Virus record (IMG/VR): IMGVR_UViG_3300033148_007780
DNA: 28,404 nucleotides
Origin: a virus
Direction: 5' to 3' (one strand)
In this document: positions 1,864 to 22,536 of the stretch, piece after piece
Layout of the letters: the number at the start of each line of letters is the position of its first letter
How positions within the stretch are numbered: the stretch's first letter is position 1
Made by a program: the position numbers and the translations under genes
The notes under the pieces: model-generated
What the model saw: the letters and a program-made list of their open reading frames with translations, nothing else
The model's database searches: none
Told to the model about the DNA's origin: nothing

Positions 1864-2098
1864 CTCATCTTCGTTTGTAATTCCAAAATATGAAATTAGC
1901 GCACGACAGTTAGACCAAATTGTTAATCATGCAGAAGAGTGTGAAAAATATAATATGCGTTGTGATAAAAGCAGCGAATGGTCTGTTGATACTGAAGGAC
2001 ATAGTGTAAAAGGTAGTACGTGGATGGATAATTTTGATATGGAGGCGTTTCTTAATTATATCAATGTAGATCCTGGTATAATTAAATGGAGTTATTAA
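1829..2098 (+). CDS. Hypothetical protein, paralog B, with the same 16-aa N-terminus as 1315..1791
   Basis: SD AAGGA lies 11 nt upstream. N-terminus MKIRNGFVSNSSSSSF is identical to paralog A. Confidence 0.6.
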   Translation: MKIRNGFVSNSSSSSFVIPKYEISARQLDQIVNHAEECEKYNMRCDKSSEWSVDTEGHSVKGSTWMDNFDMEAFLNYINVDPGIIKWSY

Positions 2099-3187
2099 AT
2101 GAAATATAAAATTATTGAAAATAATAGCAAGAAACTTGTACTATCCGAAAATTACAATTATTCTTTTGATAAATCTGATGGTAAGTTTTGTAGATGGGGC
2201 AAAACTGCATGTGACGAAGATGATCCGTCTTTTTCTCCAATTGGTCCAGAGATTTTGGATTGGGAAATAAGCACTATTTGTAATATGGGGTGCAAGTGGT
2301 GTTATAAATCAAATACATCTGTTGGCAAAAATATACCGTTCGATGATTTTAAGAAAACTTTTGAGAAAATACCAAAATCCGTTTGCCAAATTGCATATGG
2401 CATTGGGTCTATTAATGCGTTCCCCGATCTGTTTAAGATTTTGAATTACACTCGTGATCGCGGAATTATTCCTAATATTACTATTAATGGCCAAGCAACT
2501 GATGAGGAGCTTGAGCAATTGGCCATGGTTTGTGGTGCCATTTCTGTATCGCATTATAGTAATGATCTTTGTTATGATGCTATTACTAAGTTAACTGAGC
2601 TGTCTAAATTGGATTCCGCTACGTTGCGACAAGTTAATATCCATCAGCTTTTGGCGTCAGAAACATATGATGATTGTTTATCAGTTATTAATGATATTAA
2701 AAATGACGAAAGATTGAAAGATTTAAATGCCATTGTGTTTCTGCTACTAAAGCCTCGTGGCAATAGAAATACTTTTACGAGTGTAACTTATCAACAATTC
2801 GCGAATATTATTTCTTATGGCCAACAGAAAAAAGTATCGTTGGGTATGGATAGTTGTTCTGCACCGATGATGATAAAATATGTTAGTGAGAATAATCAAA
2901 AAGATATTTTGCCGAGTATAGAGCCTTGCGAAAGTTCTATTTTCTCTGGTTATTTTAATGTTGATTGCGACTATTTTCCTTGTTCTTTTTCTGAAAACAT
3001 CGGTGAATGGGAAAAGGGAATTAGTGTTTTAAATTGTGAAGACTTTATGAATGATGTTTGGTTCAGCGAAAAGGTAAAAAAATGGCGCCAGAATCTCATC
3101 AAATCGTCATCTGGGTGCAAGTGTAAGGTCAAAAATTACTGTCGTTTGTGCCCGGTTTTTGATATTACTCCATGTTTTAAGGGATAG
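2099..3187 (+). CDS. Radical SAM enzyme with Cys-rich SPASM/twitch-like C-terminal domain
   Basis: CNMGCKWC (Cx3Cx2C) near residue 60. Ten Cys in the last ~110 aa, ending CKCKVKNYCRLCPVFDITPC. GGAG SD upstream. Confidence 0.8.
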   Translation: MKYKIIENNSKKLVLSENYNYSFDKSDGKFCRWGKTACDEDDPSFSPIGPEILDWEISTICNMGCKWCYKSNTSVGKNIPFDDFKKTFEKIPKSVCQIAYGIGSINAFPDLFKILNYTRDRGIIPNITINGQATDEELEQLAMVCGAISVSHYSNDLCYDAITKLTELSKLDSATLRQVNIHQLLASETYDDCLSVINDIKNDERLKDLNAIVFLLLKPRGNRNTFTSVTYQQFANIISYGQQKKVSLGMDSCSAPMMIKYVSENNQKDILPSIEPCESSIFSGYFNVDCDYFPCSFSENIGEWEKGISVLNCEDFMNDVWFSEKVKKWRQNLIKSSSGCKCKVKNYCRLCPVFDITPCFKG

Positions 3188-3189
3188 AA

Positions 3190-4113
3190 ATGAAGCTGTT
3201 TGTAATTTTAATTTTATCTTTTTTGGTATCTTGTTCTTGTGCTACTTCTTCGCCAGAAATATTTAAAATTAGGGCACACAAACAATATAAAAATATGTCT
3301 TCCGCCGAGAGAGATCTTACAGAGGACATTATGGACAAAGCTATTGACAGTGATCGTAAAAATTATTATTTTTCTAAACTGAATCTATTATTGAATACCG
3401 AATCTAATTCTCCAGAAGACATTAGAGAAATGAATCGTAGAGAGGTTGATAGATCTGTCAAAAATAGTAAAAAAGAACGCAGAAAAATTATAAAGCAAAG
3501 TGACGTTGGATTGGAAGAATATTTGTCTCGTGAAGAATTTTATGAATCTGTCATAGATCGTAAGTGGAAAACGTACAGTCCTAATTTTAATGGAACGTTT
3601 TTTTATATAGTTGATGAAGATCCGCTTGATATATTGGTTCATATTAAGGTTAAATTGCACGGCGATTATGATTTGGTTGTTAAAGTCATTTTGTTAGAAG
3701 ACTCGATAGAAAAACATCTTAATATTCCCGGCTACTCGGTTAATTTAGTGTTTGTTGGGTATTCGTCCGATGAAGATGATGTGTTTAACGTCGATGTTGA
3801 TCCAAAAAAATGGACCACAAGTCATAATTGGATTGGGGATTATAAAGGTTTGGCACATGAGCTATTGCATTTAATGGGATTGCCTGACGAGTACGATAGA
3901 ATTGAAGTACATGCAAATAATAGAAATATGACTAAGCTTAGCAGATTGTACCAGTTTATAATACAAATGGACGCAGAGGTTCCATTAGATTCTGTTAAGG
4001 GCATTATGCATTTTCATAAATATAGGCCATTAGAAAGACATGTTTGCGCTTCCGTTGGATTAGGAAAAGAATGTATACGTGTTCGATCAAATGCGTTTCG
4101 TGCAAAGGATTAA
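3190..4113 (+). CDS. Lipoprotein, putative zinc metallopeptidase (HExxH)
   Basis: Signal peptide with lipobox LVSC; HELLHLMGLPDEYD zincin-like motif. Confidence 0.65.
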   Translation: MKLFVILILSFLVSCSCATSSPEIFKIRAHKQYKNMSSAERDLTEDIMDKAIDSDRKNYYFSKLNLLLNTESNSPEDIREMNRREVDRSVKNSKKERRKIIKQSDVGLEEYLSREEFYESVIDRKWKTYSPNFNGTFFYIVDEDPLDILVHIKVKLHGDYDLVVKVILLEDSIEKHLNIPGYSVNLVFVGYSSDEDDVFNVDVDPKKWTTSHNWIGDYKGLAHELLHLMGLPDEYDRIEVHANNRNMTKLSRLYQFIIQMDAEVPLDSVKGIMHFHKYRPLERHVCASVGLGKECIRVRSNAFRAKD

Positions 4114-4114
4114 T

Positions 4115-4411
4115 ATGAAAAAATTTAATACTTCTGATGGCAAAGAATATGAATTTTCAGATGTAAACAATGCTACTGGAACAAAAGGTTTTCTTATCAA
4201 AACAATGAATGGAAATTTGCATTTTCGTGTATATGATAAAACAAAATTAGATGAACAAGGTAATTGGACATTTTGTGATTACAAAATTCATCATTATGAT
4301 TTGGAAATTAAAATTGTAGACAAACATGTGAGTTTTTATCATACTAAAGATGACAAATTTTTTATAGATTATTCTCCAAACGCTCTCGGCATGAAAGAAA
4401 TTAAAGATTAA
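4115..4411 (+). CDS. Hypothetical protein
   Basis: ATG at 4115 preceded by AAGGA; in frame with track ORF 4079..4411. Confidence 0.5.
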   Translation: MKKFNTSDGKEYEFSDVNNATGTKGFLIKTMNGNLHFRVYDKTKLDEQGNWTFCDYKIHHYDLEIKIVDKHVSFYHTKDDKFFIDYSPNALGMKEIKD

Positions 4412-4474
4412 CATTATTATAAGCGATGAAGTGAATGTTGCTTGGACTGATTAAATAATTTTGAGAAAATAATA

Positions 4475-5035
4475 ATGGGTACTAAAAAATTCGATCAAAT
4501 TCTTGTAGTAGATATAGAGTGTACGGCATGGGAACCCAGAGAAGCACAGGGAGAACAGCCATCTGAAATAATTGAAATAGGTATTTGTAGATTGAAGATG
4601 GACTCATTTGAAATTACCGATAAAATAAGTTATATGGTACGTCCTAAATATTCGGAAGTCACTGAGTTTTGCACGAGCTTAACTGGCCTTACATGGAATG
4701 ATGTTAAAATCGGAATGCCCTTTGCGAATGCTTGTAATAAATTATTTAAGAATTTTGGTACAAGTAATAGGGTATGGGCATCTTGGGGTGATGGTGATAG
4801 AGAACAATTTCTTTGTGAGTGTAAAGAAAAAAATGCACGGTATCCTTTTAGCCAAACTCATATAAACGCAAGTGCTTTATTTTCTTTAATGACGGGACAA
4901 AAACAACGCATTAGTGTGAGTAACGCATTGAAAAAAATTGGTTTGGAATTTGTAGGCCAAGTTCATAGTGGAGCTGACGACGCATATAATACTGCACGAA
5001 TATTACGGCATCTGATGAAATCAGAAACGGATTAA
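4475..5035 (+). CDS. DEDDh-family 3'-5' exonuclease (DnaQ/oligoribonuclease-like)
   Basis: Exo I VVDIECTAWE; central D-rich WGDGDRE; Exo III HSGADDAYNTARIL (H-x4-D). Confidence 0.75.
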   Translation: MGTKKFDQILVVDIECTAWEPREAQGEQPSEIIEIGICRLKMDSFEITDKISYMVRPKYSEVTEFCTSLTGLTWNDVKIGMPFANACNKLFKNFGTSNRVWASWGDGDREQFLCECKEKNARYPFSQTHINASALFSLMTGQKQRISVSNALKKIGLEFVGQVHSGADDAYNTARILRHLMKSETD

Positions 5036-5079
5036 ACGATGATAACTTTGGTAAAATTTAAAAAGAAATTTGAAAAGTA

Positions 5080-5256
5080 ATGGATAATGACAATATCATT
5101 ATCGACAAAACAATTAAAAAGCAGTGTCAGTTTTGTAATCAATTTAAATATAATATATGGCACATAATAGACCCATTTGCTTTTGAAATTTACGATGATC
5201 AGACAGAATATGATATTTGTGATGAATGTTATCATAATAGAAAAGACGATATTTAG
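5080..5256 (+). CDS. Small Cys-rich (zinc-ribbon-like) protein, 58 aa, below the track's length cut-off
   Basis: ATG at 5080; CQFC...CDEC pairs; fills the gap between annotated ORFs on the coding strand. Confidence 0.4.
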   Translation: MDNDNIIIDKTIKKQCQFCNQFKYNIWHIIDPFAFEIYDDQTEYDICDECYHNRKDDI

Positions 5257-5316
5257 GGCTTGATGCTAACGGGCCAAATATATATGCTTTGAAGCCAAAC
5301 ATGAGGTCAAAAATAA

Positions 5317-5805
5317 ATGAATAAATTAATTATAGTAATTTTGTTTATAGTTGGATGTGGCGGACCATCCTATACAACTAAGCATGGAATAAATGTTTAC
5401 GACCAAACGAAAAAATTCTCTCCTTCTCTCGCGTCGATCGAAAATATTACAGATTCCGTAATTAATTATTTGGGCCCAACCGACTTAAACGGTATTAATT
5501 TATTGTTAACTAATGACCCAACCTCTGTTCCATTAAAAAACGATGAACCATTGTTTGTAAATGGATATACTGATTTAGAAAAACGATTTATTATTATTAC
5601 TGTGCAATCTAAGTGTTTTGCTGAAAGCGATTATGGACATGAATTAGCTCATTTCATTAAAGGCGAGGATTGGGAACATAACGATTTAAAATATTGGGCT
5701 CGTTCTGCTATAATCAACCTAATAATTCGTTTTAAAATTTGCAAAAATGGAACCGATATATTAAATGAAATTGCTGATTCTGTTCCAAATTATTACAGTA
5801 AATAA
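5317..5805 (+). CDS. Lipoprotein, putative zinc metallopeptidase (HExxH), paralog of 6449..6925
   Basis: Lipobox IVGC; CFAESDYGHELAHFI motif; clear similarity to the 6449 ORF around the HExxH. Confidence 0.65.
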   Translation: MNKLIIVILFIVGCGGPSYTTKHGINVYDQTKKFSPSLASIENITDSVINYLGPTDLNGINLLLTNDPTSVPLKNDEPLFVNGYTDLEKRFIIITVQSKCFAESDYGHELAHFIKGEDWEHNDLKYWARSAIINLIIRFKICKNGTDILNEIADSVPNYYSK

Positions 5806-5852
5806 AGGTAAATTAGATTAGTAAATATTAAATAATTCATTTTTAATAATAT

Positions 5853-5929
5853 ACTCTCATAACTCAGCTGGATAGAGTTTTGGTTTTCTAAACCAAGGGT
5901 CGAAGGTTCGAATCCTTCTGAGAGTGCCA
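5853..5929 (+). tRNA. tRNA-Arg (anticodon TCT)
   Basis: Manual cloverleaf. Acceptor actctca/tgagagt; D-arm actc-agctggata-gagt; anticodon stem ttggt/accaa with loop ttTCTaa; T-arm gaagg-ttcgaat-ccttc; discriminator g and encoded CCA. Confidence 0.9.
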
Positions 5930-5960
5930 TTTTGTAATTTAACAGAATAAAAGGATTTGA

Positions 5961-6215
5961 ATGATGTTGAGCAAACAACATATGATAATGTTAATTGTGT
6001 TTTCTGGATTTATTGGTGGGTGCGCCCTCGTGGGCATGATTGATATAGTAATAACGATTGTTATGTCAATGCAAGGAACCATTGAAGAAACATGGGTTCA
6101 ACAATTAATGCTTGGGTTGTTCGTTTTGGGTGCTGCCGGAACTATTGGAACGTTGCACATGGTTGAAAAGAAATTTCTCCAAAATATAGAAAACCAGCCT
6201 GGATTTAAAAAATGA
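5961..6215 (+). CDS. Small membrane protein (two predicted TM segments)
   Basis: Hydrophobic stretches MIMLIVFSGFIGGCALVGMIDIVITIV and LMLGLFVLGAAGTIG; AAGGA upstream. Confidence 0.5.
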   Translation: MMLSKQHMIMLIVFSGFIGGCALVGMIDIVITIVMSMQGTIEETWVQQLMLGLFVLGAAGTIGTLHMVEKKFLQNIENQPGFKK

Positions 6216-6448
6216 CATGGACGAATCGCAAAAAAGAAGATGCCGATATTGTACTTGCCGTTATTGATAAATTAATTAGTAAATATGGTATGCAATTAAT
6301 TCTTGAAGCCTTGTTGCATCAAAATAGTATTGCTGTGGCCGGAGCACAGGCATTCGGTGTTGCTGATGAATATTTAATACTTTTGGAAACTAATCTAAAT
6401 CGTGCTTTAAGAGAGTATGAGGGAAGGCACGATGAGTTTGGAAAATAA
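6212..6448 (+). CDS. Hypothetical protein
   Basis: ATGA overlap with the upstream gene (translational coupling). Confidence 0.5.
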   Translation: MTWTNRKKEDADIVLAVIDKLISKYGMQLILEALLHQNSIAVAGAQAFGVADEYLILLETNLNRALREYEGRHDEFGK

Positions 6449-6925
6449 ATGAAAGTTTTATTTGTATTTATTTTTATACTATCTGGGTGCGCTACATTCA
6501 CATATCGCAATATATCTGTTTATAACAAACAAGTAGATACATTTGCAACTCAAACGCAAATGAAGCAATTAATCGATTACGCATTTGAAGAAACTGGGTA
6601 TGAAAGTTTTTTTAATGGGTATAATTTTGTTTTTACATCTGCGTGGTTATCTCAATATCAAGCAGATGGTTCTATTATTGTTGGAGATGGACAAACTATT
6701 CTAAAAGATAAAATTATATTTTTGAAGGTTAGAAGTTGCTTTGCTGACAGTGCAATTATTCATGAAATGGCTCATGTTGTCCACTTTTATAAATATGGAA
6801 ATGGGGACCAATTGCACGAAAATAAAGCATGGTGGGATACAGTTAAAACTATGAGCGAAAAAATGGTAATAAAGTTCTGTCATAAAAGTTATGTTCGTAA
6901 CGACAAACCACCGACATCGTATTAG
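6449..6925 (+). CDS. Lipoprotein, putative zinc metallopeptidase (HExxH), paralog of 5317..5805
   Basis: Lipobox LSGC; CFADSAIIHEMAHVVHF motif. Confidence 0.65.
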   Translation: MKVLFVFIFILSGCATFTYRNISVYNKQVDTFATQTQMKQLIDYAFEETGYESFFNGYNFVFTSAWLSQYQADGSIIVGDGQTILKDKIIFLKVRSCFADSAIIHEMAHVVHFYKYGNGDQLHENKAWWDTVKTMSEKMVIKFCHKSYVRNDKPPTSY

Positions 6926-6993
6926 GCAAAGTAACAACCCCAACAAGATAAATTGGCACGTCTATAGTTGGTATTCTTTTTGAAGGAAAAATA

Positions 6994-7530
6994 ATGTATA
7001 AAATAGGTTCAGCAGATCAACATTCTAATGTAAAAGTTCATTTTGCAAGTACAGAAAAGATTGCGAAAGAAATAATGAACGATTTAAAAGAACGTTTTGG
7101 CAAAATGCAAATTGATACAGCGGATGATCATGAATATTTGTGGGATCCCGGCGGCATGTTACAAATGAATGATGAGATTTTTCGTTTTGAATTATCTGAT
7201 ATTACTTTTATGTGTTACGCCCAACATTTTAATTATTTTGTCAATAATCTTCAACAATATACACCACGAGGAACTAATACAAAATATGTAAAAATACATG
7301 GGCGATATTTTTGTATATGTATTTCTGTTGATGATTTTGAGCAACTTAAAAATCTTGTATGTGGTGCCGAATTTATTACAAAGGCGAATGAATCGGAAAT
7401 AAAAAGTAAAAAAACAGAGGATGAGTTGGTTGAATCTGGTTGTATTGTAAAAGTCATTAAAGACGAACATGGAAATACAATTCCTGTATTGCCTGTTAAT
7501 TCTGATATTCCCCCGAAACATTTGCATTAG
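6994..7530 (+). CDS. Hypothetical protein
   Basis: AAGGA-AAAATAATG initiation context. Confidence 0.5.
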   Translation: MYKIGSADQHSNVKVHFASTEKIAKEIMNDLKERFGKMQIDTADDHEYLWDPGGMLQMNDEIFRFELSDITFMCYAQHFNYFVNNLQQYTPRGTNTKYVKIHGRYFCICISVDDFEQLKNLVCGAEFITKANESEIKSKKTEDELVESGCIVKVIKDEHGNTIPVLPVNSDIPPKHLH

Positions 7531-7538
7531 GATATTTT

Positions 7539-8015
7539 ATGTCATTAATTATTGGAAACGTACAAATACAAGGCTCACACATAATGGCAATTTGGACAGG
7601 CCAAGATATATGGACAAACCAAAATACAAGAGGTTTGGCATTACTATACGATGAAAAGTGGGCTCTTATCGAGTACTTTACATTTGATGGACTACAGATT
7701 GACAGCGTATCATATACACAAAAATTTCTTATAGACGACGATCGCCAATGGTCAGAAGCATTTAATAAAATATATGGTGGTTTACAGCCATCGTGGTTTG
7801 ACAAAAAATGTACTTGTGGGGCTACAGCAGTTTTTGGCAAGGAGTGGAAAGGACATGGGCCACAATGTAGGGCAACTGAGAGCGAATTTCTCCTTCCAAA
7901 TTCTCCTAAAAACAATGATGGAAGAAACACTTGTTATAGGTGTAATCAACCAACAAAGATGATATTTAATTATCATTTGTGTAAAAATAAGGATTGTAAT
8001 TGGCATGACAGATAG
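7539..8015 (+). CDS. Cys-rich hypothetical protein
   Basis: AGGA upstream; C-terminal CTCG...CRAT...CYRCN...CKNKDCNWHD. Confidence 0.5.
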   Translation: MSLIIGNVQIQGSHIMAIWTGQDIWTNQNTRGLALLYDEKWALIEYFTFDGLQIDSVSYTQKFLIDDDRQWSEAFNKIYGGLQPSWFDKKCTCGATAVFGKEWKGHGPQCRATESEFLLPNSPKNNDGRNTCYRCNQPTKMIFNYHLCKNKDCNWHDR

Positions 8016-8631: not shown

Positions 8632-8847
8632 ATGAAGTTTGCTGGTGCCGTCATTCTAATAGTTGGCCTGGTTTTTGGTGCAGCTACTTTGGGTGGTGTG
8701 TTTGAAAACAATACAAATGCACAAATAAACAAAAATGTTCAAAAAGATATTATCGAATTTGCTCCCGACGCAATTGAAAAAACAAAACAAATTACAAATG
8801 ATATATTTGATAAACTACAACAAAAATTAAATAAAGGACAAAAATAA
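8632..8847 (+). CDS. Small membrane-anchored protein
   Basis: ATG at 8632 preceded by AAGGA; N-terminal TM helix AGAVILIVGLVFGAATLGGV; stop overlaps the ATG of the next gene (TAATG). Confidence 0.5.
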   Translation: MKFAGAVILIVGLVFGAATLGGVFENNTNAQINKNVQKDIIEFAPDAIEKTKQITNDIFDKLQQKLNKGQK

Positions 8848-18947: not shown

Positions 18948-19250
18948 ATGTTTAAGTGGTTGATAACAATATGTTTTATTTTTACATCTGGTTGCTCAAT
19001 AGGAATGACTAATCAAATGAGTCCTCTTAAACTCAAAGGTCATCCAGTGTGGCCAGTCATTGTTGATTCTGGTTTAGTTATCGGATTAAGCACTGCCACA
19101 GCAATTATGGCCGATCAACATTTTGAATCAAGAAATGATAGGGCATTGTATGTCACAAGTGCAACGTTTCTTACGTTTGCATTTATAATATCTTTATTAG
19201 CCGGTTTAGACAATATTAAATGTCAAAAACGATTAGATGGAGCCAAATAA
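18948..19250 (+). CDS. Lipoprotein/membrane protein
   Basis: Lipobox FTSGC; hydrophobic segments. Confidence 0.5.
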   Translation: MFKWLITICFIFTSGCSIGMTNQMSPLKLKGHPVWPVIVDSGLVIGLSTATAIMADQHFESRNDRALYVTSATFLTFAFIISLLAGLDNIKCQKRLDGAK

Positions 19251-21393: not shown

Positions 21394-22536
21394 ATGGTTC
21401 CTCTAATAATATTGATCACGTTGGTACAAGCTTCCACGACGCAAGAACAAAATATAACCCATACGGTCGCTGTCGGCAACCCACTGGCTGATGCGACGGT
21501 TCATGCCTCACACTACGCAGCCGTGCCTGCCGCCATGGGCTACGCCATGGAGGCCTTTGCCCAACGCTATCCAGATATCGACCGCAACCTGGCCTACCGC
21601 TTCCTGGAAATGGCGGTCATGGTGGGCGCCGAAGTGCCGTGGATGGTTCTTAGCCACGAGGGGGGCCACTACCGCGCCGCAACGCGGCATGGCTGGGATG
21701 CCGAGATCGAAATGACTGGTTGGGCCAGTGGGCTGACGCGCATTAGACTCTCTTCCGATATCCACACAATTAATCAACAACTCGTCGAAATTACTGCCGC
21801 AGGCATTAATCAAGAAACAATAAATTCATTACATATTTATCGCAACTGGGTAATTAATGGTAGTGTACGTTATCAAGAAGCGTTAAGTTTTTTATTGGCC
21901 GAAACAAATATGGCCTTGTACGCGATTAGTACATTTCAAAAAGGCAATAATATTTCTGAGCCAGACGATATTAATATTTATATTCAGCTTCTTAACGCAA
22001 AAAATCAAGATATTAAAATTTCTGATCTTATGGAAGCGGCACTGATTGCAAATTTATTTTCGGCATCTTTTTGGGCTGCGCTGATTGGAAATATTCAATT
22101 TGTTGTAACTGGTGACAGGCATATTAGTATTCCAAGTTTCAACATAGGTTTAGTTGAAATTATTCTTCCAAATTTTCATTTATTTCTTGATAGTAAAGGT
22201 CCGTTTTTTGGTGGAACGATTGTTATTAATCCGAAGAATTTCATACCAATAGAATTGCGTACTGATATTCGATTTAATGGCCAAACAGTAGCAACAAGTC
22301 TACGACTACACAAAATTATAATTCTCGATTGGTTGTGCGTTAGTCCTCATCTCGCTGGATCTTACGATATCAATCAAGGAATCGGTTATATTATTGGTGC
22401 TGACATTGGTATTAATTTTAATCGCGACCTTGGCGTTATTGTAGGTGCCACTTATATTCATGATTTTGCATTCAATGAGGTTCGAGGACGCAATAATGGA
22501 ATTACAATTAATGCAGGAATAGAATTGCCCTTCTAA
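21394..22536 (+). CDS. Secreted protein with a GC-rich mosaic N-terminal domain (HEGGH motif) and an outer-membrane beta-barrel-like C-terminus
   Basis: Signal-peptide-like N-terminus. Nucleotides 21463-21742 are about 65% GC inside a 28% GC gene. C-terminal ...NGITINAGIELPF has alternating hydrophobics and a terminal Phe. Confidence 0.6.
   Translation: MVPLIILITLVQASTTQEQNITHTVAVGNPLADATVHASHYAAVPAAMGYAMEAFAQRYPDIDRNLAYRFLEMAVMVGAEVPWMVLSHEGGHYRAATRHGWDAEIEMTGWASGLTRIRLSSDIHTINQQLVEITAAGINQETINSLHIYRNWVINGSVRYQEALSFLLAETNMALYAISTFQKGNNISEPDDINIYIQLLNAKNQDIKISDLMEAALIANLFSASFWAALIGNIQFVVTGDRHISIPSFNIGLVEIILPNFHLFLDSKGPFFGGTIVINPKNFIPIELRTDIRFNGQTVATSLRLHKIIILDWLCVSPHLAGSYDINQGIGYIIGADIGINFNRDLGVIVGATYIHDFAFNEVRGRNNGITINAGIELPF

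Follow-up and report, generated by a model that had tools for sequence, protein, structure and literature searches.

The 28,404-nucleotide window of viral DNA analysed here (IMG/VR virus record IMGVR_UViG_3300033148_007780) encodes, between positions 3190 and 6925, three predicted lipoproteins with one HExxH motif each, designated A, B and C, that probably are extracytoplasmic lipoprotein zinc peptidases. Judged by sequence and structural model, A is a metzincin with an Asp as third zinc ligand and a candidate Met-turn, and B and C belong to a separate family of minimal zincins of about 160 amino acids (aa; about 148 mature residues). The finding is real and structurally well supported. Exclusion, lysis and counter-defence are possible roles, and we regard it as an even question whether the three peptidases, during infection, act on proteins of the host envelope. 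Neither zincin peptidases nor phage lipoproteins are novel as such; new are the two uncatalogued zincin families and their predicted lipid anchoring in phages, as well as their accumulation with further envelope zincins in one uncultured clade of large phages and the tie of one family to effector cargo of extracellular contractile injection systems (eCIS). The setting is an AT-rich stretch (about 30-35% GC) of closely packed open reading frames (ORFs), all on the + strand:

3190-4113, + strand: ORF of protein A, 307 aa, predicted lipoprotein metzincin
5317-5805, + strand: ORF of protein B, 162 aa, predicted minimal zincin lipoprotein
6449-6925, + strand: ORF of protein C, 158 aa, paralogue of B

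The initial annotation had presented these ORFs as one family of three minimal zincins with lipoboxes LVSC, IVGC and LSGC and a single HExxH each. The coordinates, lipoboxes and motifs are as it described, and so is the paralogy of B and C (BLASTP, 24% identity over 148 aa, E=2e-10), whose colinearity extends from signal peptide to C-terminal Cys. Protein A, on the other hand, has no detectable homology to B or C by BLASTP (E 0.09 to 0.6) or hhalign: the alignments of the two families could be joined only over the signal-peptide/lipobox region and the B/C profile reaches A only at the signal peptide and HExxH, and a single family was therefore rejected. Likewise, "minimal" suits B and C but not A, in which about 100 of the approximately 290 mature residues form an additional helical domain. 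The absence of a named family, noted by eye, held in sequence searches of Pfam, NCBIfam, PHROGs, PADLOC and the PDB, and the zincin fold that had been suspected was obtained with confidence in the models of A and B, with D233 (A), H121 (B) and H123 (C) as conserved candidates for the third zinc ligand. In the long + strand ORFs of the window HExxH occurs four times against 0.36 expected from composition (an about 10-fold excess), and three of the four fall in lipobox-bearing ORFs. The remaining one (HEGGH, residue 88) lies in a 380-aa ORF at 21394-22536 (+ strand) with a hydrophobic N-terminus and a locally raised GC content of 43%; having neither a family match nor any supporting evidence, it was rejected as a fourth zincin.

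Protein A and its relatives

Protein A begins with MKLFVILILSFLVSC15SC17A... (its ORF begins MKLFVILILSFLVSCSCATS) and carries HELLHLMGLPDEYD at residues 223-236, of which HELLH occupies 223-227. Its parts, from sequence and model, are:

Residues 1-17: signal peptide and lipobox (LVSC15, SC17)
Residues ~22-120: all-helical N-domain
Residues ~125-307: catalytic domain
3856-3888, + strand: putative zinc site, H223-E-L-L-H227-L-M-G230-L-P-D233 (HExxHxxGxxD), followed by E-Y-D
4000-4008, + strand: candidate Met-turn, G271-I272-M273, invariant in the family A alignment
4045-4074, + strand: C286 and C295, presumed disulfide, the only mature Cys besides the lipobox and both invariant

A word-indexed search of 5.8 billion proteins yielded 31 relatives of A, all metagenomic and without a Pfam domain, that are 33-65% identical to it over nearly the full length. 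By contrast, none of 50,697 GenBank phage records matched A, B or C by tblastn, and scans of IMG/VR with the A alignment and with an alignment of the C subgroup gave no relative. The HExxH motif is kept in 32 of 32 family A members. An alignment of 29 sequences (identity down to 34%) has H223, E224, H227, D233 and Y235 invariant and G230 in at least 90%; to these are added the invariant positions H241, N244, G271-I272-M273, P280-L281, C286 and C295 and, in the N-terminal part, Y59, Y60, L64, E115 and E116. The candidate Met-turn lies 40 residues past D233, and the cellular relatives described below also have a Met there (GFM in L011, SLM in L012). The AlphaFold2 (AF2) model made from the family alignment (predicted local distance difference test score, pLDDT, 91.5; predicted template-modelling score, pTM, 0.85) consists of a signal helix, five helices over residues 22-120 and a beta/alpha domain from about residue 125 that has the fold of a metzincin catalytic domain (five-stranded sheet, active-site helix, C-terminal helix), with HExxH on helix 218-228.

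No model of Pfam, NCBIfam, PHROGs or PADLOC recognises A at threshold, nor does the family match any metzincin family of Pfam. Membership in Peptidase M6 (immune inhibitor A) was considered and rejected: family A reaches 18 bits with TIGR03296 against a cutoff of 110.8, PF05547 gives at best E 0.009 (in 13 of the 29 members), and the likeness is limited to a 17-residue active-site stretch. Snapalysin (M7) was rejected as well, there being no Peptidase_M7 match and A not being a small single-domain enzyme of about 130 aa. Both M6 and M7, metzincins with an Asp third ligand, differ from A by the latter's own conserved helical N-domain of about 100 residues, its predicted lipoprotein anchor and its phage origin. 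On a more speculative reading, to which we give a rather low probability, this N-domain, with its invariant E115-E116, might be a lipid-anchored prodomain whose cleavage would time the release of the protease.

Both families are common to cells and phages. For family A, a deltaproteobacterial metagenome-assembled genome (MAG; locus L011, a 165-kb contig of 67% GC) has an ORF 41% identical to A among ordinary chromosomal genes, and an acidobacterial MAG (Pyrinomonadaceae; L012) has an A-like module, 27% identical over A residues 23-299, in a protein of 694 aa. Since the module of L012 spans these residues, the helical N-domain is an integral part of the A module. Phage A proteins are set apart from these cellular relatives by their lipoprotein signal.

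Proteins B and C and the lipoprotein signals

Protein B starts with MNKLIIVILFIVGC14... (ORF beginning MNKLIIVILFIVGCGG) and has CFAESDYGHELAH at residues 100-112; protein C starts with MKVLFVFIFILSGC14... (ORF beginning MKVLFVFIFILSGCAT) and has CFADSAIIHEMAH at residues 97-109. The key residues are:

Protein B: lipobox IVGC14, C100, H108-E-L-A-H112, H121, W127, C142
Protein C: lipobox LSGC14, C97, H105-E-M-A-H109, D120, H123, W129, C144

The word-indexed search of the same 5.8 billion proteins found only the query itself, with B and with C alike. The family emerged from an exhaustive HMMER search of 1.84 billion representatives at 50% identity with a B+C profile: 133 proteins at E<=0.001, 52 of them at E<=1e-10, and almost all between 140 and 220 aa long. 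Conservation among the 133 (B numbering) is high at the lipobox Cys (124), G83 (127), C100 (125), H108 (130), E109 (130), H112 (132), H121 (125) and C142 (126), and the third His follows the second at a spacing of 6 to 19 residues (mode 14). For B, AF2 gives a model (pLDDT 90.4) that resembles generic zincin folds, with a small sheet whose last strand (91-95) is an edge strand, then the active-site helix (106-115), a loop bearing H121, and two further helices. B and C thus have the general marks of a zincin, namely the HExxH helix after the edge strand, a downstream third ligand and the zincin fold. GC-rich members of the family, P0170 among them, are predicted lipoproteins with low-complexity tails and lie in a bacterial chromosomal setting, with Sua5 and a sigma-54 response regulator as neighbours.

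B and C stay below the threshold of every model in Pfam, NCBIfam, PHROGs and PADLOC. The nearest Pfam candidates, SprT-like and WLM (PF10263/PF08325), were rejected, C scoring 17.0 bits against a gathering score of 25.6; among the members of the family the sub-threshold Pfam matches are to SprT-like (6 of 50), WLM (4 of 50) and, in a few, Peptidase_MA_2, and NCBIfam SprT gives E 0.049. Sequence and profile searches of the PDB returned nothing significant (the best was astacin, E 0.037, over the strand-Cys-HExxH stretch only), and a Foldseek search of BFVD with the B model returned nothing at E<=0.001. SprT-like proteins, Wss1/WLM, Spartan and the minigluzincins (selecase, projannalysin, proabylysin) are intracellular. 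B and C differ from them by a longer and variable third-ligand spacing, by a conserved Cys pair, and by being predicted to be exported and lipid-anchored.

The lipoprotein status of the three proteins was judged by a conservation heuristic (a hydrophobic run followed by [AGST...]-Cys). The lipobox-type features of A, B and C (LVSC15, IVGC14, LSGC14) are preceded by K2, K3 and K2, respectively, and by the same heuristic a hydrophobic run with Cys is found in 27 of 32 family A and 114 of 133 B/C family proteins; several of those without it have cut N-termini, and two of the five such cases in family A are labelled partial. In the family A alignment, at least 90% of the sequences have the Cys that closes the hydrophobic run at the N-terminus. 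Residue +2 is mostly Ala, Gly or Ser, and is Asp in one of the 141 signal-bearing proteins. In Escherichia coli the +2 residue decides lipoprotein sorting by the Lol system, and lipoproteins without Asp there go to the outer membrane; by this rule the phage proteins, once lipidated, would be sorted to the outer membrane. Each mature protein furthermore has exactly two other Cys, conserved in its own family (C286/C295 in A, C100/C142 in B, C97/C144 in C), which is the signature of a single structural disulfide that would form in an oxidising compartment.

Further candidate envelope zincins and possible functions

That the DNA belongs to a phage, as first supposed, is supported by its neighbouring genes and by related contigs. 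Family A genes lie on contigs with T4-type accessory genes, one of them on a contig of 291 kb, and members of A and B/C occur together in the window and in three related loci (L002, L006, L019). The last of these, a contig of 95.7 kb, has a B/C gene that starts about 300 bp after A, with one 102-aa ORF between, and a second B/C gene 10 kb upstream. Other envelope proteins of similar kind are found in the same group. Directly after A, five loci (L001, L006, L007, L020, L022) have a gene for a conserved protein of 165-176 aa with an N-terminal transmembrane (TM) segment, HELRHC and NPFE..AR (10961-11491 in L001 and 4463-4960 in L006, 56% identical to each other; no Pfam match), which the window lacks and which may represent a fourth type of envelope zincin. 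A 185-aa lipobox (FFGC) protein of L019 carries HELGHTLGLVD...SLM and, from this pattern, would be an unrelated, snapalysin-like mini-metzincin and hence a fifth type. Within 12 kb L019 holds an A homologue, two B/C genes and the gene of this 185-aa protein; in order along the contig, the four genes occupy 60-557, 4305-4862, 10001-10882 and 11202-11747. The presence of several unrelated membrane- or lipid-anchored zincin types in one phage group suggests selection on envelope proteolysis itself. A 211-aa ORF of L019 (578-1213) also has HELSH, and the gene preceding A in L001 also encodes a lipobox protein.

We propose that the lipoprotein signal peptides of A, B and C lead to their export by Sec, and that the lipobox Cys would be lipidated via Lgt, LspA and Lnt to anchor them on the periplasmic face of a membrane, the probable site being the inner leaflet of the outer membrane, where they would fold with one disulfide each. 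In A, zinc would be bound by H223, H227 and D233, with E224 as general base and M273 in the Met-turn, the helical domain standing between the anchor and the catalytic domain; in B and C, the HExxH pair would bind it together with a His that follows 9 to 14 residues later, the Cys pair stapling the two halves to each other. Expressed from a non-structural gene region of a large lytic phage, the enzymes would cut host envelope proteins during infection. Our favoured proposal, to which we still give less than even odds, is that outer-membrane proteins or receptors would thereby be destroyed or their maturation blocked (or outer-membrane protein biogenesis shut down), with the outcome that superinfecting phages would be excluded and the progeny kept from adsorbing to debris.

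This exclusion or receptor role is suggested by analogy with the location of T5 Llp and the activity of BepA and YcaL. The former is an outer-membrane lipoprotein that acts in exclusion from the periplasmic side (PMC9586334). Like A, B and C it is a phage-encoded lipoprotein with the same predicted location; unlike them, with their intact catalytic motifs, it is a small non-enzymatic binder of FhuA, and there is no similarity between them (no PHROG match). BepA and YcaL, host zincins of the M48 family, break down outer-membrane proteins that have become stalled at the β-barrel assembly machinery (BAM) (PMC7950410, PMC8423444). Together with LoiP of E. coli they represent the periplasmic or outer-membrane-lipoprotein zinc peptidase activity that is proposed here, but the analogy is functional: the M48 enzymes are larger, with tetratricopeptide repeats (TPR) or other domains in BepA, serve host housekeeping and have no sequence match to A, B or C. 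A third parallel is found in Listeria, where Mtz/Tim, a secreted metzincin of phage origin with a lipoprotein that resembles tissue inhibitors of metalloproteinases (TIMP-like), alters the wall and enhances phage lysis (PMC8235301). Mtz and A share the metzincin class, the phage origin and a proposed action on the cell envelope; the Listeria system differs from A, B and C in its Gram-positive host, in a protease that is secreted while its partner is the lipoprotein, and in its prophage-remnant CI/Cro switch locus. No TIMP-like partner lies beside A, B or C. Our literature search turned up no account of a lipoprotein protease that a phage encodes and uses for exclusion.

Several observations weigh against an envelope-directed role of this kind. 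The cellular relative of A in L011 has no signal peptide, and the A-like module of L012 is fused C-terminally to an eCIS core domain (PF13699, E 1e-30). This protein is the last (5407-7491, with the A-like module and a Gly-rich C-terminal region) of four encoded by consecutive genes (L012 130-7491) that have the same PF13699 N-terminus and differing C-termini, and the set looks like a polymorphic effector array; PF13699 (DUF4157) proteins have been tied to eCIS toxins (PMC8213781, PMC11297309). In bacteria the A module thus appears to be injected cargo, and the lack of a signal in L011 together with the eCIS fusion in L012 suggests that its ancestral role was that of an injected effector rather than of an envelope housekeeping enzyme. 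Unlike the effectors, phage A has no PF13699 and has a lipoprotein signal in its place, which points to delivery to the producer's own periplasm, not to injection into another cell. On the same speculative, rather improbable reading as the prodomain, phages would have acquired the module from an eCIS-type effector by a swap of the delivery domain for that signal. Also unfavourable are the four of eight long A-bearing loci without a B/C gene within 10 kb, the short signal peptides of B and C with the Cys at position 14, and the absence of any receptor-binding or tail gene adjoining A, B or C, unlike llp in T5. Promoter and terminator scans showed no enrichment of sigma-70-like or T4-late-like motifs and do not inform on timing. 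The diderm envelope and the Lol sorting, finally, are assumptions.

Among the alternatives, a part in lysis is nearly as plausible, by analogy, as the exclusion or receptor role, although we hold it to be rather unlikely in absolute terms. As lysis helpers the outer-membrane-anchored proteases would cut tethers between the outer membrane and peptidoglycan (Lpp-, OmpA- or Pal-like) late in infection, as an adjunct or an alternative to spanins: their predicted anchoring places the active sites next to such tethers, the Listeria metzincin of phage origin raises the sensitivity to phage lysis and virion release (PMC8235301), and C ends a gene run opened by an 84-aa two-segment membrane protein (5961-6215) with a weak match to Holin-X. 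The latter match is sub-threshold (E=0.001), however, and the membrane protein is weakly conserved beside C orthologues; neither the window nor the syntenic loci show an endolysin or a recognisable spanin in the vicinity of these genes, and the neighbours are genes of nucleotide and RNA metabolism, typical of early or middle regions. A, B and C were rejected as o-spanins themselves (about 60 aa, Pro-rich), being globular proteins of 158-307 aa with no adjacent gene for a partner with an N-terminal TM segment and a coiled coil. We give still less credence to counter-defence, in which the proteases would be directed at defence proteins of the host or a prophage that sit in the envelope, for instance exclusion proteins or membrane-bound nucleases and sensors that work at genome entry. 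Several unrelated envelope zincins per phage and the turnover of the repertoire between related phages do form an arms-race pattern, the A module serves in bacteria as eCIS-core-domain cargo, a weapon against other cells, and there are known defence nucleases, bound to the membrane, that attack at the time of injection (PMC13190303). These arguments are purely circumstantial, and against them stands that proteins made after genome entry cannot shield the infecting genome from entry-stage defences; neither a similarity to a known anti-defence protein nor a PADLOC-related neighbour was found.

The zincin assignment itself leaves little room for other explanations. It is very improbable that B and C are YbeY-like metal-dependent RNases or other non-proteolytic hydrolases on a zincin-like fold. 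YbeY has an H-x3-H-x5-H site without a catalytic Glu and is cytoplasmic; in the B/C family the catalytic Glu is kept in 130 of 133 representatives, the third His follows at variable distance (6-19 residues), a lipoprotein export signal and a Cys pair are conserved, and the weak Pfam matches are to SprT-like, WLM and Peptidase_MA_2. Placement of B/C in YbeY/UPF0054 was rejected, the resemblance being at fold level only. Short motifs do arise by chance, as the unsupported HEGGH of ORF 21394-22536 illustrates, and HExxH as well as a Cys after a hydrophobic run might be accidents of AT-rich ORFs, or the ORFs might not be genes; this we consider negligible, since the conservation of the motifs in 31 homologues of A and in more than 130 clusters of B/C already refutes it, and confident folds, conserved synteny and the excess of HExxH speak against it as well.

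With about 30 members in 5.8 billion sequences and more than 130 clusters at 50% identity, respectively, families A and B/C lie outside current domain libraries. To our knowledge only a small number of phage proteins (Llp, Sp, Imm, spanins) work in the periplasm of the host, and most of them are not enzymes. Zinc proteases that are conserved and lipid-anchored, in several unrelated versions within one group of large phages, would add to these a proteolytic reshaping of the host envelope, be it for exclusion, release or counter-defence. On a more speculative note, and with a rather low probability in our estimate, A, B/C, the HELRHC zincin and the 185-aa mini-metzincin of this uncultured large-phage clade might form a battery, an enzymatic receptor-destroying and exclusion system; if so, it would be the first proteolytic superinfection exclusion and a counterpart, in bacterial viruses, of receptor-destroying enzymes. 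Should the substrates be outer-membrane or tethering proteins, the enzymes could serve as tools or as sensitisers of Gram-negative envelopes.

Neighbouring genes

The genes around A, B and C, all in the same orientation, are:

2099-3187, + strand: radical S-adenosylmethionine (radical-SAM) protein (Pfam Radical_SAM, PHROG 7293), Cys-rich C-terminus, stop 2 nt before the start of A
4115-4411, + strand: ORF without TM segment or signal peptide, common only to the window, L002 and L003
5080-5256, + strand: 58-aa ORF with two CxxC pairs, zinc-ribbon-like mini-protein without TM segment, between the exonuclease gene and B
5853-5929, + strand: tRNA-Arg(TCT) (ARAGORN), between B and the gene of the 84-aa membrane protein
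5961-6215, + strand: 84-aa membrane protein with two hydrophobic segments and a lipobox-like IGGC21 (by hydropathy)
6212-6448, + strand: 78-aa soluble helical protein without hydrophobic segment, ATGA overlap with the upstream gene, abutting the start of C

The tRNA and the small membrane proteins that the initial annotation saw interleaved with the lipoproteins are thus present in part: the tRNA is there and the product of 5961-6215 is hydrophobic, but those of 6212-6448, 4115-4411 and 5080-5256 have no TM segment. A functional tie of the tRNA to the proteases is not evident; at the DNA level, tRNA-Arg genes are the only matches of region 2000-8000 to GenBank phages. A second tRNA, tRNA-Thr(TGT), lies at 14228-14302 (+ strand). 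The membrane protein, of which a weak homologue exists in locus L006, opens a tightly packed run (5961-6925) that is closed by C, and the 78-aa protein is kept directly upstream of C orthologues (62% identical in L002/L003, 47% in L006).

Two blocks of genes are conserved in L002, L003, L006 and L007: one consists of the radical-SAM gene, A and, beyond one or two intervening ORFs, the RNase T-like exonuclease; the other of the 78-aa protein, C, gene g6994 and NUDIX. C is the orthologue common to this phage lineage (39-46% identity and the same gene order in L002 and L006), and B, an additional paralogue that has diverged further, has its best relative (39%) beside a phage sigma-factor gene in L005. 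The radical-SAM gene directly precedes A in L002 and L003 and is separated from it by two small ORFs in L006 and L007; in L001 and L004 other genes precede A. Radical-SAM homologues (37% identity) are found in Straboviridae genomes and no GenBank phage has a relative of A, so that a functional link between the two is doubtful and an obligate pairing unlikely. A conserved inhibitor or partner beside A was likewise rejected, as other lineages have a different gene in the place of 4115-4411.

Phage-like genes of the window encode, in addition to the radical-SAM protein, the RNase T-like exonuclease, NUDIX and the two tRNAs, a metallophosphoesterase, a DprA-like protein and two RNA ligases, one of the T4 RnlA type (best RnlA-like match in a 484-kb uncultured phage). 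An R2K-clade ATP-grasp protein is encoded at 16038-16820 (+ strand); a gene with the same domains occurs at 11985-12764 of L008, which carries a C-family gene, and this suggests that both belong to the same phage group. A 100-aa ORF at 18948-19250 (+ strand), without family match, has two hydrophobic segments after a good lipobox (FTSGC16) and may encode a further lipoprotein or a membrane protein. Lastly, the 847-aa ORF at 8847-11390 (+ strand; GC 42-46% against about 33% in its surroundings) has no PHROG match and matches the eukaryotic-type major vault protein (MVP shoulder, E 1.7e-24; Vault_3 repeat, E 4.4e-9), an unusual homologue to find in a phage.

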